From positions 84,608,357 through 84,672,356 of the forward strand of contig JARFYF010000084.1 of the NCBI GenBank assembly GCA_030265395.1: DNA of 64,000 nt. The letters are read 5' to 3'. Positions 11,142-56,121 of the stretch are shown here, in pieces. This DNA comes from Rhina ancylostomus (lineage: Eukaryota). Under the pieces are notes generated by a model. It had not been told where the DNA came from. It made no database searches and saw nothing but the letters and a program-made list of their open reading frames with translations. How positions within the stretch are numbered: the stretch's first letter is position 1; every line of letters begins with the position of its first letter. The position numbers were made by a program, and so were the translations under genes.

Positions 11142-11231
11142 GCTCTGGATGGATTTGTGCTGTTGGTGAGTGCTGACGGAATGGTATTTTATGTGTCTCC
11201 CACAATCATTGACTACCTGGGATTTCATCAG
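11142..11231 (+). CDS. AHRR: AHRR coding exon, start of PAS-A (equivalent to AHR exon 4)
   Basis: ttctcag| ... |gtaagg; 90 nt, phase 0/0; [30 protein letters not shown], typical AHR-family PAS-A. Confidence 0.95.
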
Positions 11232-15800: not shown

Positions 15801-16061
15801 CAAATCTGTTCATCTGTTAAGCTACACATGACTTTGTCTCGCTACACTTGTCCAGAAAGGTTCCAAGGTTACAATGTTGTGACAAGTTCTTCAAGGCCAC
15901 TGTTTAATCACTATGGACCTTGCCTGACCTTTGAGTTCTGGTTGCAAGTTTACATATTTCTATGATCTCCAAGAGTGCTGGGTTAAATTGATTCAGTAAT
16001 CTCCATCAGCTCACCAAATGAAATATTTTTTTTGTTGTGTGCATCAGATCTAAGTCACTTA

Positions 16062-16157
16062 CTATCTGTGACTATTTCTATCAGTGAGGTTGTTTCCTTC
16101 TTTCTCTCTAGCAAAACAGTGACTATTCAAAATGCGCTGGAGGGAGATCTTGACCAT
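16062..16157 (-). pseudogene. OAZ1: Ornithine decarboxylase antizyme 1 (OAZ1)-like exon 1 fragment, nested antisense in an AHRR intron; functional status unknown
   Basis: Minus strand reads ggccggATGGTCAAGATCTCCCTCCAGCGCATTTTGAATAGTCACTGTTTTGCTAGAGAGAAAGAAGGA = [21 protein letters not shown], 20/21 identical to vertebrate OAZ1 [21 protein letters not shown]. It continues [10 protein letters not shown], then TA|gtaagt (a donor, or TAG stop if unspliced). Homology is very confident; the pseudogene call is less so. Confidence 0.85.
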
Positions 16158-16615
16158 CCGGCCTTAGGTTGCTCCACGGGACACCAGCTGAAAAGCGGTG
16201 TGGTGCCGGCGCTGGTCTGGTCGGGGGAGGGAGCGCAGACAGAGCGAGCACCTCGCACACGCAGCGGAGCCAGCCGGCTCTCTGTGACGCAACTCCCGCC
16301 GGGCGGGGGTATTTATAGGCGGCCGCCGCGCCGCCTCCTGGGAGTCGGGTCCGCGCGTTTTTCCCGCCTGTTTTTTTTTACAAATTCGCCTCGTCCGTTC
16401 ATCCCCAACCGCCGCCGGGACCCGGGGCAACGGCGGACACTTCTTCTGTTTAAATTATAGACAACCCAGCCGCCGACGCAGGTTAGCCAGCCCCGGGGCA
16501 TTGTGGGAGGCTCCGTTTAAAATGTCTGAATTAGGTTTAATTTTATGTTTAAAGTTGCCCCAGCTTCTTTTTTCGGAGGGGCGGGCGGTTTCGAGGGCGG
16601 CGGAGGGTTTTGGTT
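16133..16615 (-). promoter_or_regulatory. CpG island and TATA promoter plus 5'UTR of the OAZ1-like exon
   Basis: Dense CpG/GC block in a CpG-depleted intron. TATAAATA on the minus strand at 16310-16317, 160 nt upstream of the ATG, with no intervening ATG. GC boxes; E2F-type TTTCCCGC at 16360-16367; CRE-half TGACG at about 16285. Cut off by the gap at 16616-16733. Confidence 0.85.
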
Positions 16616-21881: not shown

Positions 21882-22017
21882 ACTGACATGATGCACCAGA
21901 GCGTGTACGACTTCATCCATGTCGATGATCGACAGGAGTTCCAGAGGCAGCTACACTGGGCCATGAATCCACCGCAGCAGGTGTCTGGGCAGGATCCTCT
22001 GGAGCAGGGAACTAGCA
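21882..22017 (+). CDS. AHRR: AHRR coding exon, PAS-A
   Basis: ctgcag| ... |gtgagt; 136 nt, phase 0/1; [33 protein letters not shown]... (HWAMNPP is AHRR-type). Confidence 0.95.
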
Positions 22018-23029: not shown

Positions 23030-23330
23030 AAATATCAAAAGCAAGAAGGCATAGGTTTATGGTGTGAGGAAGGCATTTTAAAGGGCACCTGAGGGGGTAA
23101 ATTTTTTACACAGAGAGTGACTGATATCTGGAACATGCTGCTGGAGGAGATGGTGGAATCAGATAGAATTGCCACATTTAAGAGACATTTAGATAGATAC
23201 TAAATAGACAAGGCACAGAAGGATACAATCTTAATGCAGACACATGGGATTAGTGTAGAGGAGTAGAAAGGTCGGCAAGGATGTGGTGGGCCAAAGGGCT
23301 TGTTTCTGTGCTGTATAACTCTATGACAGA
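23030..23330 (+). mobile_element. CR1 LINE 3' end
   Basis: tttttacacagagagtg..tggaacatgctgctggaggagatggtgga..gggccaaagggcttgtttctgtgctgtataactctatga. Confidence 0.8.
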
Positions 23331-23377: not shown

Positions 23378-23505
23378 GTGAAGAGTATCTGGGTTCTTTC
23401 AAAGCTTATGACCCAAAAGTTCTGCCACCAGAATTTTCTCCATTCCTGAACCGTTGTTTTGTCATCCGAGTGCGTTGCCTACTGGACAGCACTTCAGGAT
23501 TCCTG
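23378..23505 (+). CDS. AHRR: AHRR coding exon, PAS-A
   Basis: ttttag| ... |gtaggt; 128 nt, phase 1/0; ...[27 protein letters not shown] (LDSTSGFL is AHRR-type; AHR has LDNSSGFL). Confidence 0.95.
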
Positions 23506-25064: not shown

Positions 25065-25267
25065 ACGATGCAGTTCCAAGGCAGACTAAAGTACCTCCAG
25101 GGACAGAGGAAGAAAGACAGGTCTGGTGCTGCCCTTCCACCACAGTTGGGCTTGTTTTGTATCGCTGTACCTCTGCTGCTCCCATCCATCGGTGAAATGA
25201 AGCTGAAGAGCCTGCTCCTCAAGACCAAACACAAGCTTGATCTCAGCCCCATGACACTTAGTGCAAA
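25065..25267 (+). CDS. AHRR: AHRR coding exon, end of PAS-A and start of PAS-B-like region
   Basis: caatag| ... |gtaagt; 203 nt, phase 0/2; [17 protein letters not shown]...[45 protein letters not shown]. Confidence 0.95.
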
Positions 25268-28200
25268 GTAAGTAACAAAGTCCCAGTCATCTTGAAATGG
25301 CTGCCTGAAAGGGTGGTGGAGCTAGATTCATGAGTAAATTTCAAAAGGGCATTTGATATACATGAGGAAAGGAAAAGGTTTCAGGCTTTTGAACGAAATC
25401 AACAGAAGTGGGACTAACTGAATAGCTCTTCCAAAGAACTAATGCAAACCTTGTTAACCAAATGACCTGCTTCAGTGCGTTACAGATCAATGATTCTATG
25501 AAGTGGGGTTTAATTAATAAAGAAAATATCTCAGAACAGAAATTGTGTTTACTGTTTGAGATCATTTAGGTCAATCTAATAGAAATAGCTTGCAGACAAG
25601 CACACAATACAGGTAACCCTGTTGCATGAGTATATTTACTTACTAAGGATCTGCCACTATTCATTTAACAAAGAAATAAGGCACTATATTAATCTAAAAA
25701 AAACACTTGATTTTCATCTTAATATTTTACAAAATTATCCACAAAAAGGCTTAAGTTCACATGAATCTGGTGTATGACTGTCAGTGTTGACTTGGGTCCG
25801 GTTGTATAGTGATCACATAACTAAACTAGTAATCTAGAGAACATGAATTTGCATTGCATTGGAGGATTTGAGTTTAGTTTGATAAAATCTGAGCTAAAAA
25901 GCTGATGACAGTAAAAGGTTTTGTCTCAAAATCTGTTTGAGCATAGGTATTCTACAAAAGGTTGTAAGAATCAGGATGCCCAGATCTTGGGCTTTGGAAT
26001 TCACTTTCAGATTGGAACAGAGGACCATAGATGAAAATGGTTGTGAGATGATAATTCACCAAGGTCATCAATGACTGCATATAAGGACCACATAAACAGT
26101 GATGGTCTTAATCTGAGGGCTGTTTCAGGGTTAGATAAAGTGCTAACCCTCTCCTTCTGCTGCTAGAGACTCTGATGTGTACTTGGAAGGTGTCCTCCAT
26201 AACTTTCCTTTTAACTTATCATTCCCACCTCCTCCCACTCCCACCATCATCTGGCTGAACTACCTAGATGTTCATACCCCATTCTCCAGATAATCTTCCT
26301 CCGACCACTGCTGCAGTAACTCTTCCACGATGGTGGGTGACCGCATAGGTTGGGCCTGTTCCGCTGTGTACAAGAGCCTTGGGCTTCGGCGTGTTGGACT
26401 TGTTTGGGTGTCTTTACTCTAGATCAGAAATGTCCAACAGCTTGCTAATATCCTTTACAGAGTGTACCTGTTACCCACACCAGGTTTGAGGTATCCATAT
26501 CTCTGGGGTCACAAACCATCGAGGTTTACTTTTAACTGTGGTGGCTTAGCAAACCATTTAATGATATCAAACTGCTGTTCAAAGAGCAAAGCAGTGGACA
26601 ATTAATGCTGGCCTGACCAGCGACCCCTGTGTAAGTAATAAATAATAAAAATATTTAAAAACCTTATAATGGCCCTATTAATCATTCTATATTTATTAAT
26701 ATGAATTGCATTTATCATAAGCCAGACTGTCATTTACTTCTTGTGCTTTAATTTCTTTGTGGTGTTGGTTTTTCTTGACCTGTGGGTCTTGTTAAGTGCA
26801 TAGGAATGAAGCCCAAAACTAAGCACAGTGAAATCACCTTTGCTGATCCCAGCTTTTTATTTTCAGATTTTTTTTTTAAGTAACTTTAAATTCTGAAAAG
26901 GCCATGTTGGAATTTAAACAATGAACCAAGCCTCTGAACCACTAGCTCAGTAATATAAACACAACAGTATCTGTACTGTATATTGGTAACATTTCTCTGG
27001 ATGTAGCAATCAGAAATGGAATGAACGCAATAGTTATGATTGCTTTGCTTAGAGATTGGAGTTCACTCTCAGTGTGTGTAGTGCTATTGCTCACTTGAAT
27101 GTACTGAAAGCATTGGACAAAATTACTTTAAAGGTTGCACACTGATTCATGGGCTCATAGCCATCACATCACTGCTGTGCTGGACTCTGAGAAGGTGGTC
27201 AGACCTTAAAGAGCCTCTCTGCATGGCAGCCTCAGAACCACTGAGGAAAAGACTGCCAGAGAGATGAAGGAAAACACAGGCAGATGGAAACAGACAGCAT
27301 GTAATCCAATCCACTGATTTGGTCTTATGCAACGAGTGGCCTCACATCACTGCGAGGTTCCAGGCCAGTCTGATGGACATTGCAGCAAACTGCACTGAGG
27401 TGCACGACCTGAAACTGCCACAGTTATCACAGAGACACGCTGATCCTCCTGGATATGAGCAATGAAAATTTAGGTTGTAGAAGCTGTGAATTAACCAGGA
27501 ATCATTTCATTCTCATCTTATTGTTGGTCTGCATCAGAGTTTGTTCCCTTTAGTGTAATTGATAAGCAAAACTGTAGGTTGTATCCTTATGCACGAATTT
27601 AGTTCAGTAAGCACAGAAATGGCTGCTGTACAAAACTCTGTCCTGAAGCTGCATGACAGCCACTGGGCAAATGTTAGCCACTGAGAGGGAATTGTGCAGA
27701 GCAGTGCCAGGGCCAATTTCCCAATGAGAGCTAATTGACCTGGAAATGATTACTACTGGGAACTAATGAGAACAAAAGGGCACTGATGCACACAACATGC
27801 ACAGAAGAAACATACACAGATTGCTCCAATTTCGAGGCTGTAGTGTTGCTGCTACTGCCATACCTCCTCCTTCTCCTCCCAGCATCCCACCCCAGCCCTC
27901 TCTGCGACCTTTGCTGATCTCAGATACCGACAAAACAGAGTCGTTAACATCAGAAGTTGTCCTTCAAGGATTCAGCAAGGGTTGGGGGGCATCAGCTGGC
28001 TCCCAGAACAATTAAGGTATTACCTTCACCTCACTCTCTTGAATCCCCACCCCTGACCTATCCTCACATTTCCTCATCCCATTCTCCCCCACAGAAACAT
28101 TTGGGACTAAATCATGACGTGGTTCAGGTGCAAAGTGCTGCATCTCACAAGTTATGGAAAACTGGGTTGTGGGGAGTGGGAGGTGGGAAGAGCAGATAAT

Positions 28201-30487
28201 ATGATATTGAATAAGAGTATCAAGGGATTTGTTACCTGTTGAACATCTCTGTCCCTGCTTTCTGAAGGACTCCTGCTTCTTCCTGGCTTTTCCTGCTCAA
28301 ATGTGATTTATTGGCCAGTGGGCTGAATATTCACTGAAGAGATAAATTCATTTTGTTAGAATTGTGACAGGCAAAACCAAAGTCAGCAGTTTTTTGGCAA
28401 GTACAAAAATCACCTTGTCTGTACACAGGTGATGCCAAGGTCAGTGTTTCAAGCCTTGTCTGCTTTCCTTCAGTCCCTTGTCTCTAATTCCAAGTTCCTC
28501 ACCTCCTCCCCATATCGAAATATTTCAAAGGAACATATTCATCAAACAAATGTACAAAGATCAACATCACCATCTGCTGTTGACAACTGGAACTCTGCAA
28601 GTATTAAACTTGTAGCAAAATTGAAAAACTACAAAACCCAACAATTATTCTGCTTGGAGATGATTTTTACACTTTTCTTATGGACAACACAATCTTAAGT
28701 AAAATGGTGCCACCTCAATTTTGTCCTTGGTTCTACTCATTTTATTTCCTGCTAAACTTGATTCATTGTTTATACCAAACTGAAGCGGTTAGAAATCTGA
28801 AATGAAAAGACAAAATACTGAGCAGGCTTGGCAACATCTGTAGAGAGGGGAAAAAGTAAGGTCCTTGCTTCTGACACAACAATGATTTTCATTCCACTGC
28901 CAATGGCTTCAGTGCCTTCAGCTGCTAAGGGCCCTAAACTCTGGTATTCCATCTGTAGACCACTCCCCATTTCCAGTTCTCTTTTCTGCTTTAAGATGCT
29001 CTCTGAAACCTTTTTCTTTCACAAAACTTAAGCTCACTCCCCTAATATTTCCTTCATTTGCTCAGTGTCAAATTTTGTTTGTTGGTTCTTCTTTCATCTG
29101 CCTGTAGACATGTACAGAACGCACTTTTAATTTTATGTCAAGGTACCTAAGCATATCACAATAACATCTACTTTATAGTTGTGATTTATGTTTTTAAATT
29201 GAGTTAAGTGTGCTGGGTAAATTCAGGTGTTTAAGTCTTTAAGACAGAGTTTAATGTTGTGTGGCATCTCACAGTACATCCAGTGAACTTTTAGCAGAAG
29301 TTCATTGTTCATGTTGTGAGCCTGACCTGCCAGAGTACCCTTCACAAAAGTTAGGGGTCTGTAGAAGCTGTACACAAGGGAAGATGAAATGGCTGAAATG
29401 AAATTGGAATATCTGAATCTCATGGAGAGTCCAGAGCCGGAGGAATTGATTCCTCGTCATCTGGAGCTAAAGTTCTCCTTGAGGCAGTATTTTTTTGGTG
29501 GTTTTGGTCAGTAGAACTGCTGCACCTGTTCACCCAGGGCAAACACCAGCAATACTTCGACCTAAAACGTGCTAATAGTATTCATCTTGGAAGGTCTGCA
29601 TCCATGACTTTGGACAGTCAGGACCCCAAATCACCCTCTTTTTGTATAATAGAGAAAGTGTCCCAGAACCCAGCCCCAGACTGCAAATTTCTTCAGTTTC
29701 CAGCCTTCTCTACCATTCAGTTCAATCGCAGTTGAGCATCACCTTAAATCCATCTACCTGTCATGGTACTGAGATCTTTAATGGTCTTCCCTTGCTAAAA
29801 ACTATTAACCTCACCTTTAAAATTTTAAATAACATAGCCCAACAGTTTTTTTTTGAGGGAGACAGCTGTAGATTTTCATTATTGTTTGTGCAAAGTATTG
29901 TGTCATGACTTCCAATTTTAAGGATAAGCCTGCTTATTCTGAACTTCTTACCAAAAGAAATGGTTTCTGTCAACTCTGTCAAATCGTCTTCAACATCTCA
30001 AATTACTTCTCCCTTTGTAACCTCTTCTTATAATTAGAGCTTGATTTTGTTTTGTTATTTTTTATTTAAAGGTTCTGTTTGGGGGGATTTCTTTTTTTAT
30101 CATGGTAAATTGGGTATTTTCAATTATTGAAAAAGTTCATATATTAAGATTCTTCAACTTATAATTTCTGTATAACACAACTAAATTGAAATTGGTTATA
30201 GTAACAATTACAGACCAGTCCAGGCTTTACTTCAATATCACAAAATCATAATTTTCTTCCATGTCGTTGTACATAGCTTTCTAGTTTTGCCCCATTTCCA
30301 CTGATGCTTTTTTCATCACCATCCTGTCCACAGACAAATAGGACTGGTCGGTATGAGCATTTTTGAAAGGCATGTATGGTCTTTATAAAGCAAAATGAAA
30401 GACAGTGTGAATTATGTATATTTCATATTTATTCATGACACAGAGATTAATTGGTGAAAATAAAATTGATCTTTGAGATTTGATTTT

Positions 30488-30605
30488 CGTGTCTGCGTGG
30501 GTGTCCTCCGAGTGCTACGGTTTCCTCCCACATTCCAAAGATGGGTTTAAATGGGCGGTGCAGACTCGGGCCAGAAGGGCCTGTTAGCACGCTGTAAATA
30601 AAATG
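30488..30605 (+). mobile_element. 5'-truncated HE1/V-SINE with CR1-like tail
   Basis: tctgcgtgggtgtcctccgagtgctacggtttcctcccacattccaaaga ... gggccagaagggcctgtt. Confidence 0.75.
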
Positions 30606-30793
30606 TTAAAAAATGTAATTTAATTTCAGTGATGCTTTCTTTCAGCTTTTATATGTTAAAATTGAAAAAAAAATTCAAGCCCCACTTCAGCTACTGAGGT
30701 GTGGTGCTCAGAACTGAACATGCAGCCAAATCCAGTCGAGGAAGAGAATTACGTAACTCAAAAGTAACTTGTATCCCTTTGTGATGTACCTAG

Positions 30794-30900
30794 GGGCAAA
30801 GCAATTGCAGGATGGTCAGACACAGAGCACCGAACAAGATCAGGTTGCCATTACCTCCACTTTACGGATGTGCTGTGCCGTGCAGAGAATCAAATCCGAA
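30794..30900 (+). CDS. AHRR: AHRR coding exon, PAS-B-like (equivalent to AHR exon 8)
   Basis: acctag| ... |gtaagt; 107 nt, phase 2/1, in frame with both neighbours; GKAIAGWSDTEHRTRSGCHYLHFTDVLCRAENQIR aligns to AHR [36 protein letters not shown]. Confidence 0.88.
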
Positions 30901-31190
30901 GTAAGTTTGTCCTAAACCTCCCTGGCTCTCTCCTCCTAAAACCTGCCTCTTTGATCAAGCTTTTGGACACTCTCTCCTGAGGCACCTTGTTGAAATATTT
31001 TTTATGATGATCACTCTAGTGAAGCATCTTGGATGTCATACTACTTTAAAAGTGCTGTGTCAGTTGTCGTCAGGTAGATTCTCTGCTCTGCACTCCACGG
31101 AGCAAACATTTTCGTATGCAATTATGTACAGGAATCCTGAATGAAGTGACGCGGATCATGTTTGTTTCAAAAATGTTCATGTTCCCACAG

Positions 31191-31332
31191 GGATGAACAC
31201 TGGAGAAAATGGCCTCACGGTCTTCAGAGTGCTCACTAAAGAAGGTCAGTGGGTTTGGTTCCAAACTAATGGCCATCTTCCCCATAGGAACAAATCTGCG
31301 GAATTTGCCACAGTGCCTCAAGAGGAACTCAA
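31191..31332 (+). CDS. AHRR: AHRR coding exon, PAS-B-like (equivalent to AHR exon 9)
   Basis: ccacag| ... |gtaagt; 142 nt, phase 1/2; MNTGENGLTVFRVLTKEGQWVWFQTNGHLPHRNKSAEFATVPQEEL aligns to AHR [46 protein letters not shown]. Confidence 0.92.
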
Positions 31333-31599
31333 GTAAGTTAGTTATTTATAAATAGTATTTCTTTTGGAATTGTTCCTCAGTTATAATATCTCTCAGACTC
31401 CATGTTGTGTTTGAACAAGTAAGTAAAACCATTAAAAGAAGTTAAAAAAGGGCACAAACTTTCTTCATATCTGACGATTTATTTCCTAAATCACTTGCAG
31501 CAGTACTCTAAGGATTTATCTTTAACTCTTGGGAAATCTAGGGTTTTTGCCCAATTGTTTCTAGATGTACTCTAATCTGCAGTTAGTTGTAGCTTCTCA

Positions 31600-32060
31600 A
31601 ATCTGTCTGTATTTTACCTGGATCTCCATTTTTGATTCCCTCCAATCAAATTTCCTCCGTTGTCACAGTATTGAAACAGCTCTATTCAAAGGTGATTGTG
31701 ATTGTGATAAAGGTAGCCTTCTCAACCAGTTTGAGGCCTTTGACACGGTTGACCACACCATCTGCCTCCAATACCTCAGCACCATTTTACACCTTGATAG
31801 GACTACATTTTTATCTATCCAGTCAAAGTTAGTGAATCACCAGCAATGGCTTCTCACACGACCATGCCAATGGGCTGAAGGGCCTGTTTCCGTGCTGTAT
31901 GATTTAAGACTTTATGCTCCTTAAGACCTATCTTTCTGGTCAAGCTTCAGGCCAAGTGCCTTAAATCTCCTTGTGTGGTTCAGCAGCAGTATTTTTCATA
32001 ATGCCTCTGTGATCACCCTGGGACATGTTTGTTCTATTAAAGGTGTTGTCATCATTGTTT
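31600..32060 (+). mobile_element. Decayed L2-type LINE RT fragment with a short CR1-tail insert
   Basis: FDSLQSNFLRCHSIETAL...AFDTVDHTICLQYL in ORF 31565-31924. Confidence 0.7.
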
Positions 32061-32420
32061 TAACCCTACTCTACCTGAAGTAGTTTAGCTGGGTTTAAGT
32101 ATTCATGTAATTCAACATTAATGAGATGCTGCTGACTTATTTATTTACTTACTTGTATGTTCTTGCATCGACAAGTTGTGAAATAATAAGCCCAACAATT
32201 TCTAGCCCTAAAATATGTCACGTGTAAGACACTGAAACAAGCAACACTGAAGCTGACATTATTNNNNNNNNNNNNNNNNNNGTGGCTACTTTGACTAATG
32301 TTAGTAAATGCTTATTTTAAAAGCAAATATTTAAAGTGTTGGGGAACTGTACAGGAAAACTGGTTAACAACAAGCAGCATGTTGTCTACATGTTATATTC
32401 ATGGTTCTGATTTCCCACAG

Positions 32421-33651
32421 GGACACAGAGAGATCCAAGGAAGAGCATCTGAGGAACCAGTCAAACACTGACGAGTCAAGCAGCACCAATGGATTTATGT
32501 ACAGCAACTGCAGTGATATATCTTTGCAATTAAAACAACTGTATGACGAGGCCCCAACAAAAGAAGGAAGAGAAGAGAAATACGAGCCTGTTAGAAATGA
32601 TGGTGGTGTCAACCTGAACGAGCCCCTCAATTTTAGCACATCATTTCCCAGACCTGCAAAGGTTTCCATTGCAGATGACTTATGGGTGTCAGAGTACAGC
32701 AGAGGCCCATCGAATCTGCAGCCCCTGAGGCCCGTGGGCAGAACGAATAATGATCCTGCTCGAGTGGCTAAGGGCTTCTGTGGCAGAAGTAGACTGCTAT
32801 CTGAGCCTCAGCTCAGGGATAACACACAGACCTCCAGCTTTCAAAACATAGTCCAGAACTTCCGGTCTGTCGGAGAAAAGATGCAGCAAAGCCAACTGTT
32901 CAACCTGCAATCTACCAACCTGGAGAGCTACCCAGCTGAAAGCTGCAAATCGGAAGGTGTTACAGCAATGTGCAATCCCATTAGTCAAAGGTCAAGGGAT
33001 CTTCCTGCGGAGTACTGTAACAGCGCAGACATGTTTCAGGGGGTGCAAATCAAAAGCGAGTACAATGTGGAACTGCACAATGGGCTAGGTGGGCCCTTGG
33101 AATCTCCGAGTCATCTCTGGGTTGACAGCGAAATGGGAAAAAAGATGGTGGCAAGCTTTCCAGGACAGCAGCAATTAAAGTGCGATCCCAATACACCAGA
33201 GCAGGTGTCACCCTGTGAGAAACTGAAGGCTCTCCTGCCAACTCCATTCTGTGGAGCCAGCACAGCTAAGGGCAGTGGCGTGTGGATGGTGGGCAGTGCT
33301 TGCAACCACAGTAGGCCTTCAAAGCAAGGAATGGACATGGCTCACTTCAATTCACAGAGAGCCACCCATTCCCATTGCTCTCACAGTGATCAACCCACAG
33401 GCTGTTTGCAAGCACATGCCTTTCCCCGCCATACTATCCAGGATAAAGGTCCAGGTCAGGAGGAATATAAAGTACCACTGCAGTTCAAAGGTCATGATCT
33501 AGTCCACACAGTCATCAAACGAGAGCCCTCACCCTCTCCTCCTTGGTCTTGTGATAATCTGCACAACATACAGGCAGGCTTACAGAAAAATATGCCCAGT
33601 TGTTTGATCAATTCATTGACTCATAAGATTACACAAAATGCATATTTGTAA
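32421..33651 (+). CDS. AHRR: AHRR terminal coding exon, C-terminal repression domain, stop TAA at 33649-33651
   Basis: ccacag| acceptor in phase 2, inside ORF 32401-33651. Contains IKSE, SHLWV, SFPGQQQLKCDP and VIKREP..SPPW, matching AHRR C-terminal blocks (human IKME, SQVWL, TFPTRMHLKTEP, VVKREPLDSPQW, from memory). No AHR-type acidic/Q-rich transactivation domain. Confidence 0.93.
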
Positions 33652-41749: not shown

Positions 41750-42345
41750 TGTAGGCAGTCCCTCAGAATCGAGAACTTGTTTCCACTTCAGTTCTGTCAG
41801 TTCTAAGATAGCCGATGAGGCCAATGTAAGAGCAGCAGATTGGGACAGAGGGTATCTTTCAGGAGAGGTGGGTATTCAGTGGCATTCGAAGGGTTTCTTC
41901 TCCACGTTGAACCATCACCTCACATGGATCCCCAGGAGTCAGTGGGGATGTTGCACTTTTTTCAAAGAAGCTTTGAAAGAAGTCTTGAATCTTTTCATTT
42001 GCCCAACTGGTAATCTCTTCTGACAAAAGAGCTTGAAATAGGGAAAGTCGTTCGGCATACAAACAACGTGACCTGCTCAGGCCAAGAACCCATGGAGCCT
42101 CAATGCTAGGCGTGTTGACCTGGGAGAGGCAAGAGACTGCAGATGCTGGTATCTGGAGCAACACAGAAGGTGCTGGAGGAACTCAGCAAGTCAGGCAGCA
42201 TCGTGAAAGGAAATGGACAGTCGACGGTTCGGGCCCAGACCCTTCCTCTAGACTCATTGATTTGCTTGTCCTACAGTGGAGGATCCTGCAGAGACTGCAC
42301 GAGTGGGATCTCTTCGGTGCATTGCGGCTGCTGCAGCTCTAAGAC
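41750..42345 (-). mobile_element. Decayed LINE (probably RTE-type) interrupted by a Penelope-like fragment at about 42128-42255
   Basis: gtaggcagtccctc..gagaacttgtttccact end motif. The insert carries actcagcaagtcaggcagcatc and a mutated hammerhead core. RTE assignment from memory. Confidence 0.45.
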
Positions 42346-42379
42346 ATCACATAAGGTGAACTGTTGGAGCAGAGACATT

Positions 42380-42830
42380 ACTTCGTCCTACAAGGCCGGA
42401 AATGATTGCAAGGGGCGGGCGTTATCGCCGAGCGTTCTGGGACTTGCTGTTCAACGGTGCGAACTACATTGCCCGGCAGGCTCAGCAGCTTCCGGAAGGG
42501 CAGGTGTCGGTCGGTTGGCGTGACGGGGGTCCACGCGCGGTCTCGGTCAGTGAACGTTCCATTACGTTATTGTTTCCCTCCGCGCGCGGTCACGCGCAGC
42601 GCCCGGTGCCCTGCAGCTCCGGCCGGGCGAGCGGCTCCGGGACTGGGGACTGGGGGCTGGAACCTGCGGCCTGGCCGTGCCGCTCGGGAAGGCACGGCCA
42701 GGGAGACCGAGGAGAGCCTCCGCAGGGACGGGCAGTCGATGTCACGGCAGCCTCGGGCTCTGGTGGGAGGACAGCCCCGCGGTTTGACAGCAGAGCCCTG
42801 CTGGTCGGCAGTTAGTTTCGGTGTCGTCTC
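42380..42830 (+). promoter_or_regulatory. EXOC3: CpG-island promoter and probable non-coding exon 1 of EXOC3
   Basis: High CpG density, GC box ggggcggg (about 42412), ETS cores ccggaa (about 42396 and 42492), ZNF143-like motifs. Candidate donor gca|gttagt at 42810/42811. Nearest island upstream of the EXOC3 ATG exon. Confidence 0.8.
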
Positions 42831-44249
42831 TGGCTACATCTGCTGCCTGCAGTTGAAGACTCTCGGAGCCTATGTTGTTGCTGTGCATTGTTGCAGTCTC
42901 ACAACCTTCAGTACTCAGCAGTGTGTATCAATGCAGCCTTTGGCACTGGGGTGGATTACAGTTCCAATGATAACCGCTGCATGCCATTGCAGTTTTGGTG
43001 TCTGACGCTGTTTTATCATCGCTATTCCACATTATCAGAATTTTGCGCATCCTTGTCAAGTATTACTATGCGGGACTCGTGATGCATTGTGCTGGTGTCT
43101 ACAGATGTGTTAGAGTTTCAGAGTGCAGTTCTACATGTTGTTTTGGTCTTGGGATGTTATGCTCCCCATTGCAGTGCATTGTATTTTTGTACACTTTGTC
43201 CTTGTTATTTGCATGGGATAGGAACACAGACCTCTAGTGGTTACCACTCAGGACTTGTGTGTGGAAGTATTAACGTGACCTCTCCCCAATCCTAAATCAT
43301 AGTTCTGTAAACTTTAAGATTATTGTGATGGGAGGGAGGGGTCTTGCTGAAATTCTCCTTTGTTTCCATAGCAATCTTCATCTTAATGACAATGCATATT
43401 GGAGGCTTCTCAAATTCCACAGATCCAACTCATAACGGTTACACATTGTTGCTGCCCTTTAGTTTTTGAGGTTTGCAATTGCTTTGCCTGAAGCTGGCAA
43501 GAATGGGAGGATTTCCAGGCATTGCATGTGTCACTTGGAGCTCAGTGCTGCTTCTGCTCCATGTCATTATGCCCTGATTAGGGAGAGGCTGGTTACACTG
43601 TCCTTTTCTTGGAAAGTCTCTGGCAGAAGTCTGNNNNNNNNNNNNNNNNNNNNNNNNNNNNNNNNNNNNNNNNNNNNNNNNNNNNNNNNNNNNNNNNNNN
43701 NNNNNNNNNNNNNNNNNNNNNNNNNNNNNNNNNCTGCCCATTAAACAGATGCCATAGGGAGGACTCTGGATGATTACGCAGTGTTTACCGACACTCCCAA
43801 TATTGCATGACTATGTGGATCCACGGAGTGCAGATCAACAAATAACAAGGACTGGGTTTATTGCTGTTTCATGAGGGATACTGTATCATCAGAATGGAGA
43901 AGGCATTCTTAAAAGGTATTTTGGAAACTTAATGCCATATGACCAGGTAGACATGGCCGTGGTTTAATATCTCTCTAGGAATGTCTCGCCTCCAGAAACA
44001 CACTCCCTAAGGGGGAAATTCAAATGTCAAGCACGTTTATCTGTTCAAACTCTACATCAGGGATTGAACTAATGACCTTCAGAACTGAAAATATTATCAC
44101 CGAACCAAGCTTGTTCTTGGTTATAATATTGAACAATGCTACCCTTGACTTACCCTGCAGTATTCTATTTACATTTTCTTATTCTAATTGCTTGACAATG
44201 GTCAGACTTTTAAAAAGTGTTGAGCAGCTGGTTCTTGGAGTGTATGATC

Positions 44250-54370: not shown

Positions 54371-54657
54371 TAATTTGGGCAATATCTGCAGTTTATTATT
54401 TTTTAAAAATTTAACATCATATAGACTAGCACTGCAGAACCAGTCCATTTGGTCGATTAGCTTCAGAGTTTTGCTTTAAAATGTCCATTCTTCAAATTAT
54501 GAGCTCTCTTAACTGTAGTAATCACAAATGTTGTAAACAATTTTGAAATTATGATCATTAATAGAAGATGCTTTTGAACATTTAATAATGTTTTAAATCA
54601 ATATTGTTGCTAATCCTGTGATAACACAACAGCTAATATTACTTACCTGGCTTTCAG

Positions 54658-55339
54658 TTCCAGAGATTGTGCAGGAGGCCTATGAGCTAATTGAACGCGG
54701 AGAACTGCTTTTAGCCCACCGAAAGCTGATGGACCTAGAGTGCTCCCGTGATGATCTAATGTATGAGCAATATCGTATGGATAGCAAGAATATGCATGAT
54801 ATGAAACTAATTCAGGCCTATTTCACTGAGGTGCAGAATCTCTCTGAGCAAATGGGCAAGCAGATTTGGATGCTGGTGCAAAGATCCTCAGTGACAGTCC
54901 GCAGTGATCCAGCCCAACTTGTCTCAATGATTCGAATCATTGAGAGAGAAGAAAAAATTGATAAGAAAATGCTTGACCGGCAGAAGCAGACTGGGTTCAT
55001 TCCTCCTGGCAGACCAAAAGAGTGGAAAAACAAATTGTTTGCCGTTTTAGAACAGACTGTTGCTAATCGAATTGAAGCCAGTCAGTCTGATACACGAGAA
55101 TTAGATAAAATGTGGCTTGTGCGTCACTTAGAGCTCACACGCAAATATGTTCTTGAGGACTTGCTGGTCATGAAGAACTTGATGGTGCAGTGTTTTCCCC
55201 CTCACTACAACATCTTCAGAAGGCTTCAGAATTTGTATCACCAGGCTCTAGTGGCACGTGTGGAAGAACTTGCATCTGAGGATCTGGAGGCCAATGAAAT
55301 TGTTTCACTTTTGACTTGGGTTCTAAATACATATCAGAG
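54658..55339 (+). CDS. EXOC3: EXOC3 coding exon 3
   Basis: tttcag|VPEIVQE...GFIPPGRPKEWK...EIVSLLTWVLNTYQ|gtgaga; 682 nt, phase 1/2. Confidence 0.97.
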
Positions 55340-56121
55340 GTGAGAATTTGATTTAGCGGTATTTAACATCAAATCATATTTACAGTACAGTAGGACACCG
55401 TTCAGTTCATCATGTTCATGCTGGCCAAAGGACATGGTCCATTTGGATGAATCTCACTTACCACCTCTCCGTCAATAGTCTTGTAGGTTACACCACCTCA
55501 GCACATTCAGGTACCACTTAAATGTTTTGCAGTTTTCCGTTCCACTCTTTAGGTAATTAATTCCAGACCCCCTTCCCTTGCCCATCTCCCAACCAGTCTC
55601 TGCATTTAAAACAAAATGTCTTTCTCAGTTCTCATCTGTTTCTACCAATTAACTTTAAATTTATGTCCTCTATCACTGAACTCTCTACTAAGGAGAATGG
55701 GTCCTTTCTGTCTAGGCCTTGCAGTATTATACACCTTGATTAAATCTCTCCTTGTGCATTGTATAAGACTGTAACTTTTCTCTTGTAATTTATTCTAGTA
55801 TGGCAAACTTCTGTTTTGGCCCACTTTATCAGAGAGTCAGCAAATTGCAGAAATAGGTAGCTAATAGGTGGGTGGAGGAGAGGAAAGTTAGGTGTGTTCC
55901 TATTAAACCAGAAAACCTACAGTGTGCTCTTTCAAAGACCAGTTTATCCTTCTTGAAGTGGGATGCTCAAAACTAATTAGAGTACTATAGATTCAATCTA
56001 AATTTGTACGACTGTCATAGTAAGCTGCTAAATTTTGCTAGCAATAGCTTGTTGAACTTTACCTTTGGTCTTAGTTGCTAACTTGAATTGTGTTTTGCAT
56101 TTCGATATATTTTCTGTATAG

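Follow-up and report, generated by a model that had tools for sequence, protein, structure and literature searches.

The window analysed here, a stretch of 64,000 nucleotides from the genome of the ray Rhina ancylostomus, carries on its forward strand, to which all window coordinates refer, seven coding exons of the repressor gene AHRR, and these include what, judged from the sequence, is most likely the ancestral PAS-B domain's best-preserved living relic. The bHLH exon of the gene sits on the same contig, some 92 kb upstream of the window, and the seven exons (Table 1) form one open reading frame whose sole stop codon is terminal. AG/GT ends are found throughout, and the 203-, 107- and 142-nucleotide exons and the last exon share a single frame. 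The in-frame splicing of the first three of these had been proposed in a preliminary description of this DNA, and the peptide quoted there is reproduced by the translation; the end-to-end alignment with AHR PAS-B that it reported, interrupted by one gap, is likewise recovered when the full AHRR protein of a close relative is aligned with human AHR. Homology to AHR PAS-B extends in the ray protein from A-beta to H-beta and is weak in I-beta. Within the A-beta/B-beta equivalent, T289, H291 and P297 of AHR are kept and F295 is replaced by Leu; in the 107-nucleotide exon, Y322 is changed to Cys, C333 to Arg and H337 to Gln. Searched alone against solved structures, the 142-nucleotide exon matches AHR chains (E 2e-7) and the 107-nucleotide exon has no match.

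Table 1. Features of AHRR and its neighbour in the window, and AHR-family loci elsewhere in the same genome.
Feature	Position	Strand	Remarks
AHRR coding exon, start of PAS-A	11142..11231	+	90 nt; tblastn with P0001, splice ends, frame
AHRR coding exon, PAS-A	21882..22017	+	136 nt; tblastn with P0001, splice ends, frame
AHRR coding exon, PAS-A	23378..23505	+	128 nt; tblastn with P0001, splice ends, frame
AHRR 203-nt exon: end of PAS-A, PAS-A/PAS-B linker, A-beta/B-beta equivalent	25065..25267	+	
PAS-A/PAS-B linker, inside the 203-nt exon	~25170-25214	+	threads HSP90 in AHR (PMC9668932)
AHRR 107-nt exon, C-alpha to F-alpha equivalent	30794..30900	+	splice joints, frame, alignment
AHRR 142-nt exon: best-kept part (G-beta/H-beta hairpin) and eroded I-beta	31191..31332	+	
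Eroded I-beta, in the 142-nt exon	~31283-31330	+	Pro at the T382 position
AHRR last coding exon	32421..33651	+	J-alpha-like acidic segment, tail, AHRR-type C-terminus, stop codon
SUMO-type motif 1, IKSE	33049..33060	+	spacing as in other AHRRs
SUMO-type motif LKCD	33175-33186	+	spacing as in other AHRRs
SUMO-type motif IKRE	33514-33525	+	spacing as in other AHRRs
Neighbouring gene, open frame with Sec6 domain, EXOC3-type	54597..55343	+	PF06046, E 2e-45
AHR tandem pair	C1:63.65-63.95 Mb		
AHR3-type gene with 107-nt exon	C17:44.43-44.48 Mb		
AHR-family locus	C81:7.93-7.95 Mb		
AHR-family locus	C84:62.54-62.66 Mb		same contig as AHRR, ~22 Mb apart

By sequence comparison the gene in the window is AHRR, and this part of the preliminary description is confirmed by the trees, the tail and the neighbouring gene. 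A search with the last exon returned eight elasmobranch proteins of 791-799 residues, the best of them, P0001, at 95% identity; two sharks and one chimaera were added by searching with the PAS-B region. In a tree of bHLH-PAS-A (59 rows) the window sequence falls among rays, inside an AHRR clade of 28 rows with a support of 100/100, and the AHRR clade is again recovered at 100/100 in the combined tree. The modelled bHLH-PAS-A region has AhRR (5y7y_A) as its best structural match (Z 24.7, root-mean-square deviation 1.5, 196 aligned residues, 73% identity). The tail encoded by the last exon is long, modelled with low confidence and devoid of a Q-rich region, with at most 8 Gln per 40 residues, compared with 12-21 in three conventional AHRs and 7 in an AHR3-type row. 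It contains three SUMO-type motifs, present also in the 10 other AHRR rows checked, which we take to correspond to the SUMO sites of mammalian AHRR. Downstream, on the same strand, lies a Sec6 exon, putatively EXOC3-type by its domain, and EXOC3 is presumably the usual neighbour of AHRR. Five further AHR-family loci are found elsewhere in the genome. Source labels proved uneven: P0002 is named AHR-like and is an AHRR, and P0207, labelled CLOCK, aligns as an insect AHR.

The origin of the PAS-B exons themselves was addressed with a tree of the 107- and 142-nucleotide exons (42 rows and 80 columns, from which rows of gar, teleosts, mammals and Anolis were omitted along with some near-duplicates). 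Chondrichthyan and bony-vertebrate AHRRs are united in it at 100/99, in species order, on branches several times longer than those of AHRs, and a grouping of the chondrichthyan AHRR exons with AHR3-type genes is rejected by the approximately unbiased (AU) test (p-AU 0.004). Since both the gene and these exons group with AHRR rather than with AHR, the outcome that the preliminary description had wished to see checked, the PAS-B exons were inherited vertically and not acquired from an AHR. Capture of the exons, or conversion from an AHR, is rejected by both trees, the species order and the AU test. The AHR exon lengths of 203, 110 and 142 nucleotides quoted in that description are largely borne out in this genome, where 203 is read in three AHR paralogues, 110 in four and 142 in four, but the fifth, AHR3-type paralogue has a middle exon of 107 nucleotides together with the same tryptophan as AHRR. 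Because length and tryptophan are common to the two genes, the gap is no sign of AHRR decay; all 8 invertebrate rows have it too, and from these alignments it is probably ancestral. The label AHR3 for the 107-nucleotide paralogues is our own presumption. AHR3 is recognised as a clade in the available part of PMC8708342. The combined tree pairs AHRR with the AHR3-type clade as its sister, at an unstarred 91/80, a relationship neither shown nor rejected and left unresolved by the other two trees, and a preprint, as far as its accessible portion goes, pairs AHRR with AHR2 instead (10.1101/2022.07.13.499904).

The extent of PAS-B in other AHRRs was scored on an AHR-only profile for 122 rows, namely the window, 119 of the 120 highest-ranked out of 1686 matches and two added sharks; P0009 (1378 residues), which may be a fused gene model, was excluded from the counts. 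The rows are predicted proteins, so that exon loss is known at the protein level rather than from DNA. All 12 chondrichthyan AHRR rows score 84-112 bits, the next best row among the 122 scores 78.5, and 15 held-out AHRs score 140-176; the window AHRR reaches 90 bits over profile positions 2-94 of about 100, and each of the 11 other cartilaginous-fish AHRRs retrieved carries an open PAS-B segment. Scores of 20-80 bits are found in 35 of the 122 rows, led by sturgeon (78.5) and coelacanth (76.4), followed by amphibians, turtles and birds, and including also bichir, gharial, tuatara, a marsupial, platypus and some lizards. The remaining 75 rows score below 20 bits or not at all, among them all 60 named gar and teleost proteins, and primate AHRRs stay below 5 bits. 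Among the AHRRs sampled, it is therefore the cartilaginous fishes that retain the most AHR-like PAS-B sequence.

The decay differs between lineages in place as well as in degree. I-beta scores 0.6-1.6 per residue in chondrichthyan AHRRs against 2.6-4.1 in all AHRs, whereas most bony-vertebrate AHRRs have lost the N-terminal strands and kept I-beta better (2.6 per residue in sturgeon). The ray gene, described at first as an evolutionary intermediate, is thus better seen as one branch of a split decay. In agreement with the erosion of I-beta, the Pfam PAS_11 match, which the preliminary description had named as a check, passes the cut-off in P0002, P0005 and P0010 and falls below it in the closest relative, P0001, and in three chondrichthyan AHRRs it ends at position 91-95 of 109, compared with 108 in AHR. 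A separate observation concerns the G-beta/H-beta hairpin (window 31191-31280), which is well kept, at 2.3-3.1 per residue, in birds, turtles, amphibians, coelacanth and sturgeon (P0014, P0016, P0023, P0069, P0103) despite the decay of the remaining PAS-B; this pattern of sequence scores hints that in tetrapod AHRR the hairpin may have its own function.

Within the cartilaginous fishes the core of the segment is under constraint and I-beta is near background, as judged from protein identity by region. Between batoids and sharks, identity is 81% in the A/B strands, 70% in the 107-nucleotide exon, 80% in the G/H strands and 63% in I-beta; for comparison, PAS-A stands at 83%, the bHLH-PAS-A linker at 43% and the last exon at 55%. 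The corresponding values against the chimaera are 58, 69, 75 and 38%, with 76% in PAS-A and 40% in the last exon.

Inclusion of the exons in the message was followed in three sequencing runs (X1-X3) of a close relative, all from one study and classed as RNA by guess only, no holder of the last exon being recorded as RNA. One contig of 3991 nucleotides in X1 joins the 203-, 107- and 142-nucleotide exons and the last exon by three GT-AG joints (at 95% likeness), and has 730 bases 5' of the 203-nucleotide exon, where a full-length transcript would need 717 coding bases. Two of the three inclusion joints are present in X2, which also joins exons 23378..23505 and 25065..25267 on one contig, and one is present in X3. 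No joint that skips the exons is listed in any of these runs, although contigs drop rare forms. The two PAS-B exons are thereby shown to be present in the mRNA of a close relative, and the exon skipping raised earlier as the event that would undo the proposal was not seen.

The state of the ligand pocket was judged against the AHR contacts described in two structural papers, both available in part: 15 contacts to indirubin in a pocket essentially devoid of charge (PMC9668932), and 8 contacts common to six ligands, with F295 and L353 both needed for the ligand response (PMC11791172). The window AHRR keeps 6 of the 15 indirubin contacts and 4 of the 8 universal contacts; the ranges are 5-7 and 3-5 in the 12 chondrichthyan rows, compared with 12-13 (17 rows) and 7-8 in vertebrate AHRs. 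All 12 chondrichthyan rows have F295 and L353 altered and have lost Y322, so that two of the three stacking aromatics (F295 and Y322) are gone in the ray, and Pro occupies the T382 position in 10 of the 12. C333, retained by sharks, is Arg or His in rays (Arg in the window); rays retain Q383, which is Lys in 5 of 6 sharks, and the chimaera lacks H291. Of the pocket residues listed as changed in the preliminary description, F295L, Y322C and C333R are confirmed by the alignment; of those listed as kept, T289, H291, F351 and Q383 stand, but the Leu of its VFRxL motif is L354, the pocket residue L353 being the second Val of VFRVL. These contact counts make ligand binding, which had been entertained there, unlikely, and the PAS-B segment probably no longer binds AHR ligands.

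Contacts to partners were compared on the same basis. The AHR linker between PAS-A and PAS-B threads HSP90, and F404 and F406 are the XAP2 residues (PMC9668932, in part); neither Phe has a counterpart in the ray AHRR. The linker is kept even in teleost AHRRs without PAS-B and is therefore not diagnostic.

The fold was modelled with AlphaFold2 in two runs on the relative P0002, one with an AHRR-only alignment (36 rows) and one with an AHR-rich alignment (80 rows). The former formed just the G-beta/H-beta hairpin, at a predicted local distance difference test (pLDDT) score of 45.8, too weak a model to carry much weight. In the latter, pLDDT was 83-96 in the PAS-A core and 69-84 over residues 301-370, where PAS-like helices and the G/H strands were formed, and the model failed in the A/B region (50-52, built partly as helix) and in I-beta (53-62). 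The fold check suggested at the outset is accordingly answered in part, by helices and a hairpin but neither A/B strands nor a full I-beta. The five-stranded sheet appears in neither run, with no matched AHR control folded beside them, and on these models a complete PAS-B fold is disfavoured, without proof. When the full model was used to look for similar folds, bHLH-PAS-A dominated the outcome, and isolated PAS-B chains aligned to the PAS-A of the model, so that these searches are uninformative on the PAS-B segment. Together with the I-beta scores and the truncated PAS_11 match, the missing sheet means that the term ‘full-length’, applied to this PAS-B in the preliminary description, is not supported.

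The reading that we favour, with a probability of roughly two in three, is that the ray AHRR is an ordinary ligand-independent repressor that contains an inherited, constrained, partly folded and ligand-blind PAS-B relic. By analogy with mammalian AHRR, whose mode of repression is treated in the accessible parts of PMC10570930, PMC4057711 and PMC12808330, bHLH-PAS-A would pair with ARNT and compete at xenobiotic response elements (XREs), and the tail would recruit co-repressors. The AHRR of the ancestral jawed vertebrate would have had a whole PAS-B, of which cartilaginous fishes may have eroded the pocket and I-beta and bony vertebrates the N-terminal half, while gar and teleosts would have dropped both exons, as the in-frame sum of 249 nucleotides permits. 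The retained core likely has a structural or protein-contact role. Several observations weigh against this reading. Conservation near the level of PAS-A across the divergences of shark, ray and chimaera is an argument against a merely passive relic; the window keeps H291, P297, G321, F351, T289, H326 and D329 as well as S276 and I277 of the linker; the weak AlphaFold2 result may, for want of an AHR control, be a failure of modelling; and the splicing RNA comes from a relative, from one study and is RNA only by guess, with rare skipped forms lost from contigs.

A second reading is a PAS-B that is complete but ligand-blind and offers a surface for dimerisation, with ARNT PAS-B for instance, in the way that the PAS-B of insect AHR folds despite having few vertebrate pocket residues; it differs from the favoured explanation solely in the completeness of the fold. 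Insect-type AHR rows keep 5-6 of 15 contacts, yet the PAS-B of spineless has solved structures, and wherever an AHRR has the exon, the element kept best is G-beta/H-beta. However, insect-type I-beta scores 3.2-3.6 per residue, far from the 0.6-1.6 of chondrichthyan AHRRs, and the ray loop lacks its aromatic residues where, in the part of PMC11791172 available, a C-terminal loop bridges AHR PAS-B and ARNT PAS-B. On balance such a fold appears unlikely.

Somewhat more doubtful is a ligand-gated repressor, in which cartilaginous-fish AHRR would have a folded, HSP90-chaperoned PAS-B with a small-molecule ligand of its own, probably unlike the AHR set, and would stand in for a receptor-like ancestor common to AHRR and AHR3-type genes, transactivation having been lost earlier than ligand binding. 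The one-gap alignment across the domain, the three relatives that pass PAS_11, a core conserved near the PAS-A level, mostly conservative changes on the HSP90 face, C333 in sharks and the 5 of 8 universal contacts in Heptranchias all speak for it; the uniform alteration of F295 and L353 amid 3-5 universal contacts, the variable I-beta with its Pro, the incomplete sheet in both models and the sub-threshold PAS_11 score of P0001 speak against it. That the exons are instead a neutral leftover, mostly skipped or unconstrained, is quite improbable. Skipping both would leave the frame intact (107 + 142 = 249), the 60 named gar and teleost proteins do without the segment, and the AHRR branches on these exons are long, but the segment is open in all 11 other chondrichthyan proteins at an identity well above that of linker and tail, and constitutive skipping is rejected by the inclusion joints in the three runs, which list no skipping joint. 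If the gene were an AHR paralogue under the wrong name, or an AHRR whose PAS-B exons had been regained from AHR by conversion, the 107-nucleotide exon, the tryptophan and the AHR-like name of P0002 could be accounted for, but this is barely credible beside the AHRR placement in species order in both trees, the AU test, five separate AHR loci, the 5y7y_A match and the AHRR-type tail, and mislabelling is rejected on the trees and the separate loci.

Other features of the window are few. A CpG island at 16200-16615, in the AHRR intron between exons 11142 and 21882, has an observed/expected ratio of 0.99 (16001-16500), includes a TATA-like run near 16310 and reaches an assembly gap; it could be an intronic enhancer or an internal promoter. 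A second island, at 42000-43000, is probably the promoter of the downstream Sec6/EXOC3-type gene. XREs, through which AHRR is induced, are not in excess in the window (7 observed, 4.8 expected), the AHRR promoter lying outside it, and Rfam gave no match in the window. Short high-copy repeats with very high contig depth lie in AHRR introns at 23102-23327, 30488-30611 and 31868-31905.

AHRR is routinely defined by the absence of PAS-B, whereas the sequences give a graded series: sharks, rays and the chimaera have a nearly complete domain, coelacanth, sturgeon and most tetrapods a half-decayed one, and gar and teleosts none. Through this series, the succession of events by which a receptor became a repressor, namely the losses of activation, of ligand binding, of chaperone dependence and of the domain, becomes testable on natural proteins, and the relic, as a likely record of that passage, should interest specialists in AHR and in domain evolution. 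It also bears on the elasmobranch control of responses to dioxin and polycyclic aromatic hydrocarbons and, if it is true that the shark domain binds a ligand, would add a control point to AHR signalling. A literature keyword search, which left key AHRR papers uncovered, found no report of a retained AHRR PAS-B, and a prior mention is possible; the accessible portion of the preprint 10.1101/2022.07.13.499904 lists cartilaginous-fish AHRRs with no comment on PAS-B, and that of PMC13747243 holds nothing on it. Public annotations already tag these chondrichthyan proteins with PAS_11 or PAS_3.

Compared with the PAS-B of AHR, AHR1 and AHR2 (7ZUB, 8XS6-8XSB), the ray AHRR shares the exon phases, the 203- and 142-nucleotide lengths, a colinear alignment and the residues H291, P297, G321, F351 and Q383, and differs in its 107- rather than 110-nucleotide middle exon, in F295L, Y322C, C333R, H337Q and L353V, in its eroded I-beta and in having neither F404/F406 nor a transactivation region. 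The AHR3-type paralogues of sharks, coelacanth, lungfish, bichir, paddlefish and gar have the same 107-nucleotide exon and a Trp in the same place but, unlike the ray AHRR, keep 6-8 of the 8 universal contacts and an intact I-beta and form a clade of their own. The AHRRs of coelacanth, sturgeon, bichir, amphibians, turtles, crocodilians and birds possess homologues of both exons that group with those of the ray, although with A-beta/B-beta and C-alpha to E-alpha far more decayed (29-79 bits). With vertebrate AHRR in general (human structure 5Y7Y) the ray protein shares the orthologous clade, the absence of a Q-rich region, the SUMO-type motifs, the C-terminal motif and the Sec6-type neighbour. 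It departs from the description of that protein as lacking PAS-B (PMC10570930 and PMC4057711, in the parts available), a trait of mammalian AHRR that fails here, where about 100 residues score 90 bits on the AHR PAS-B profile. Because 35 of the 122 rows, from bony vertebrates, also keep remnants of 20-80 bits, the absence of PAS-B describes mammalian and teleost AHRRs and is not a criterion for the clade.

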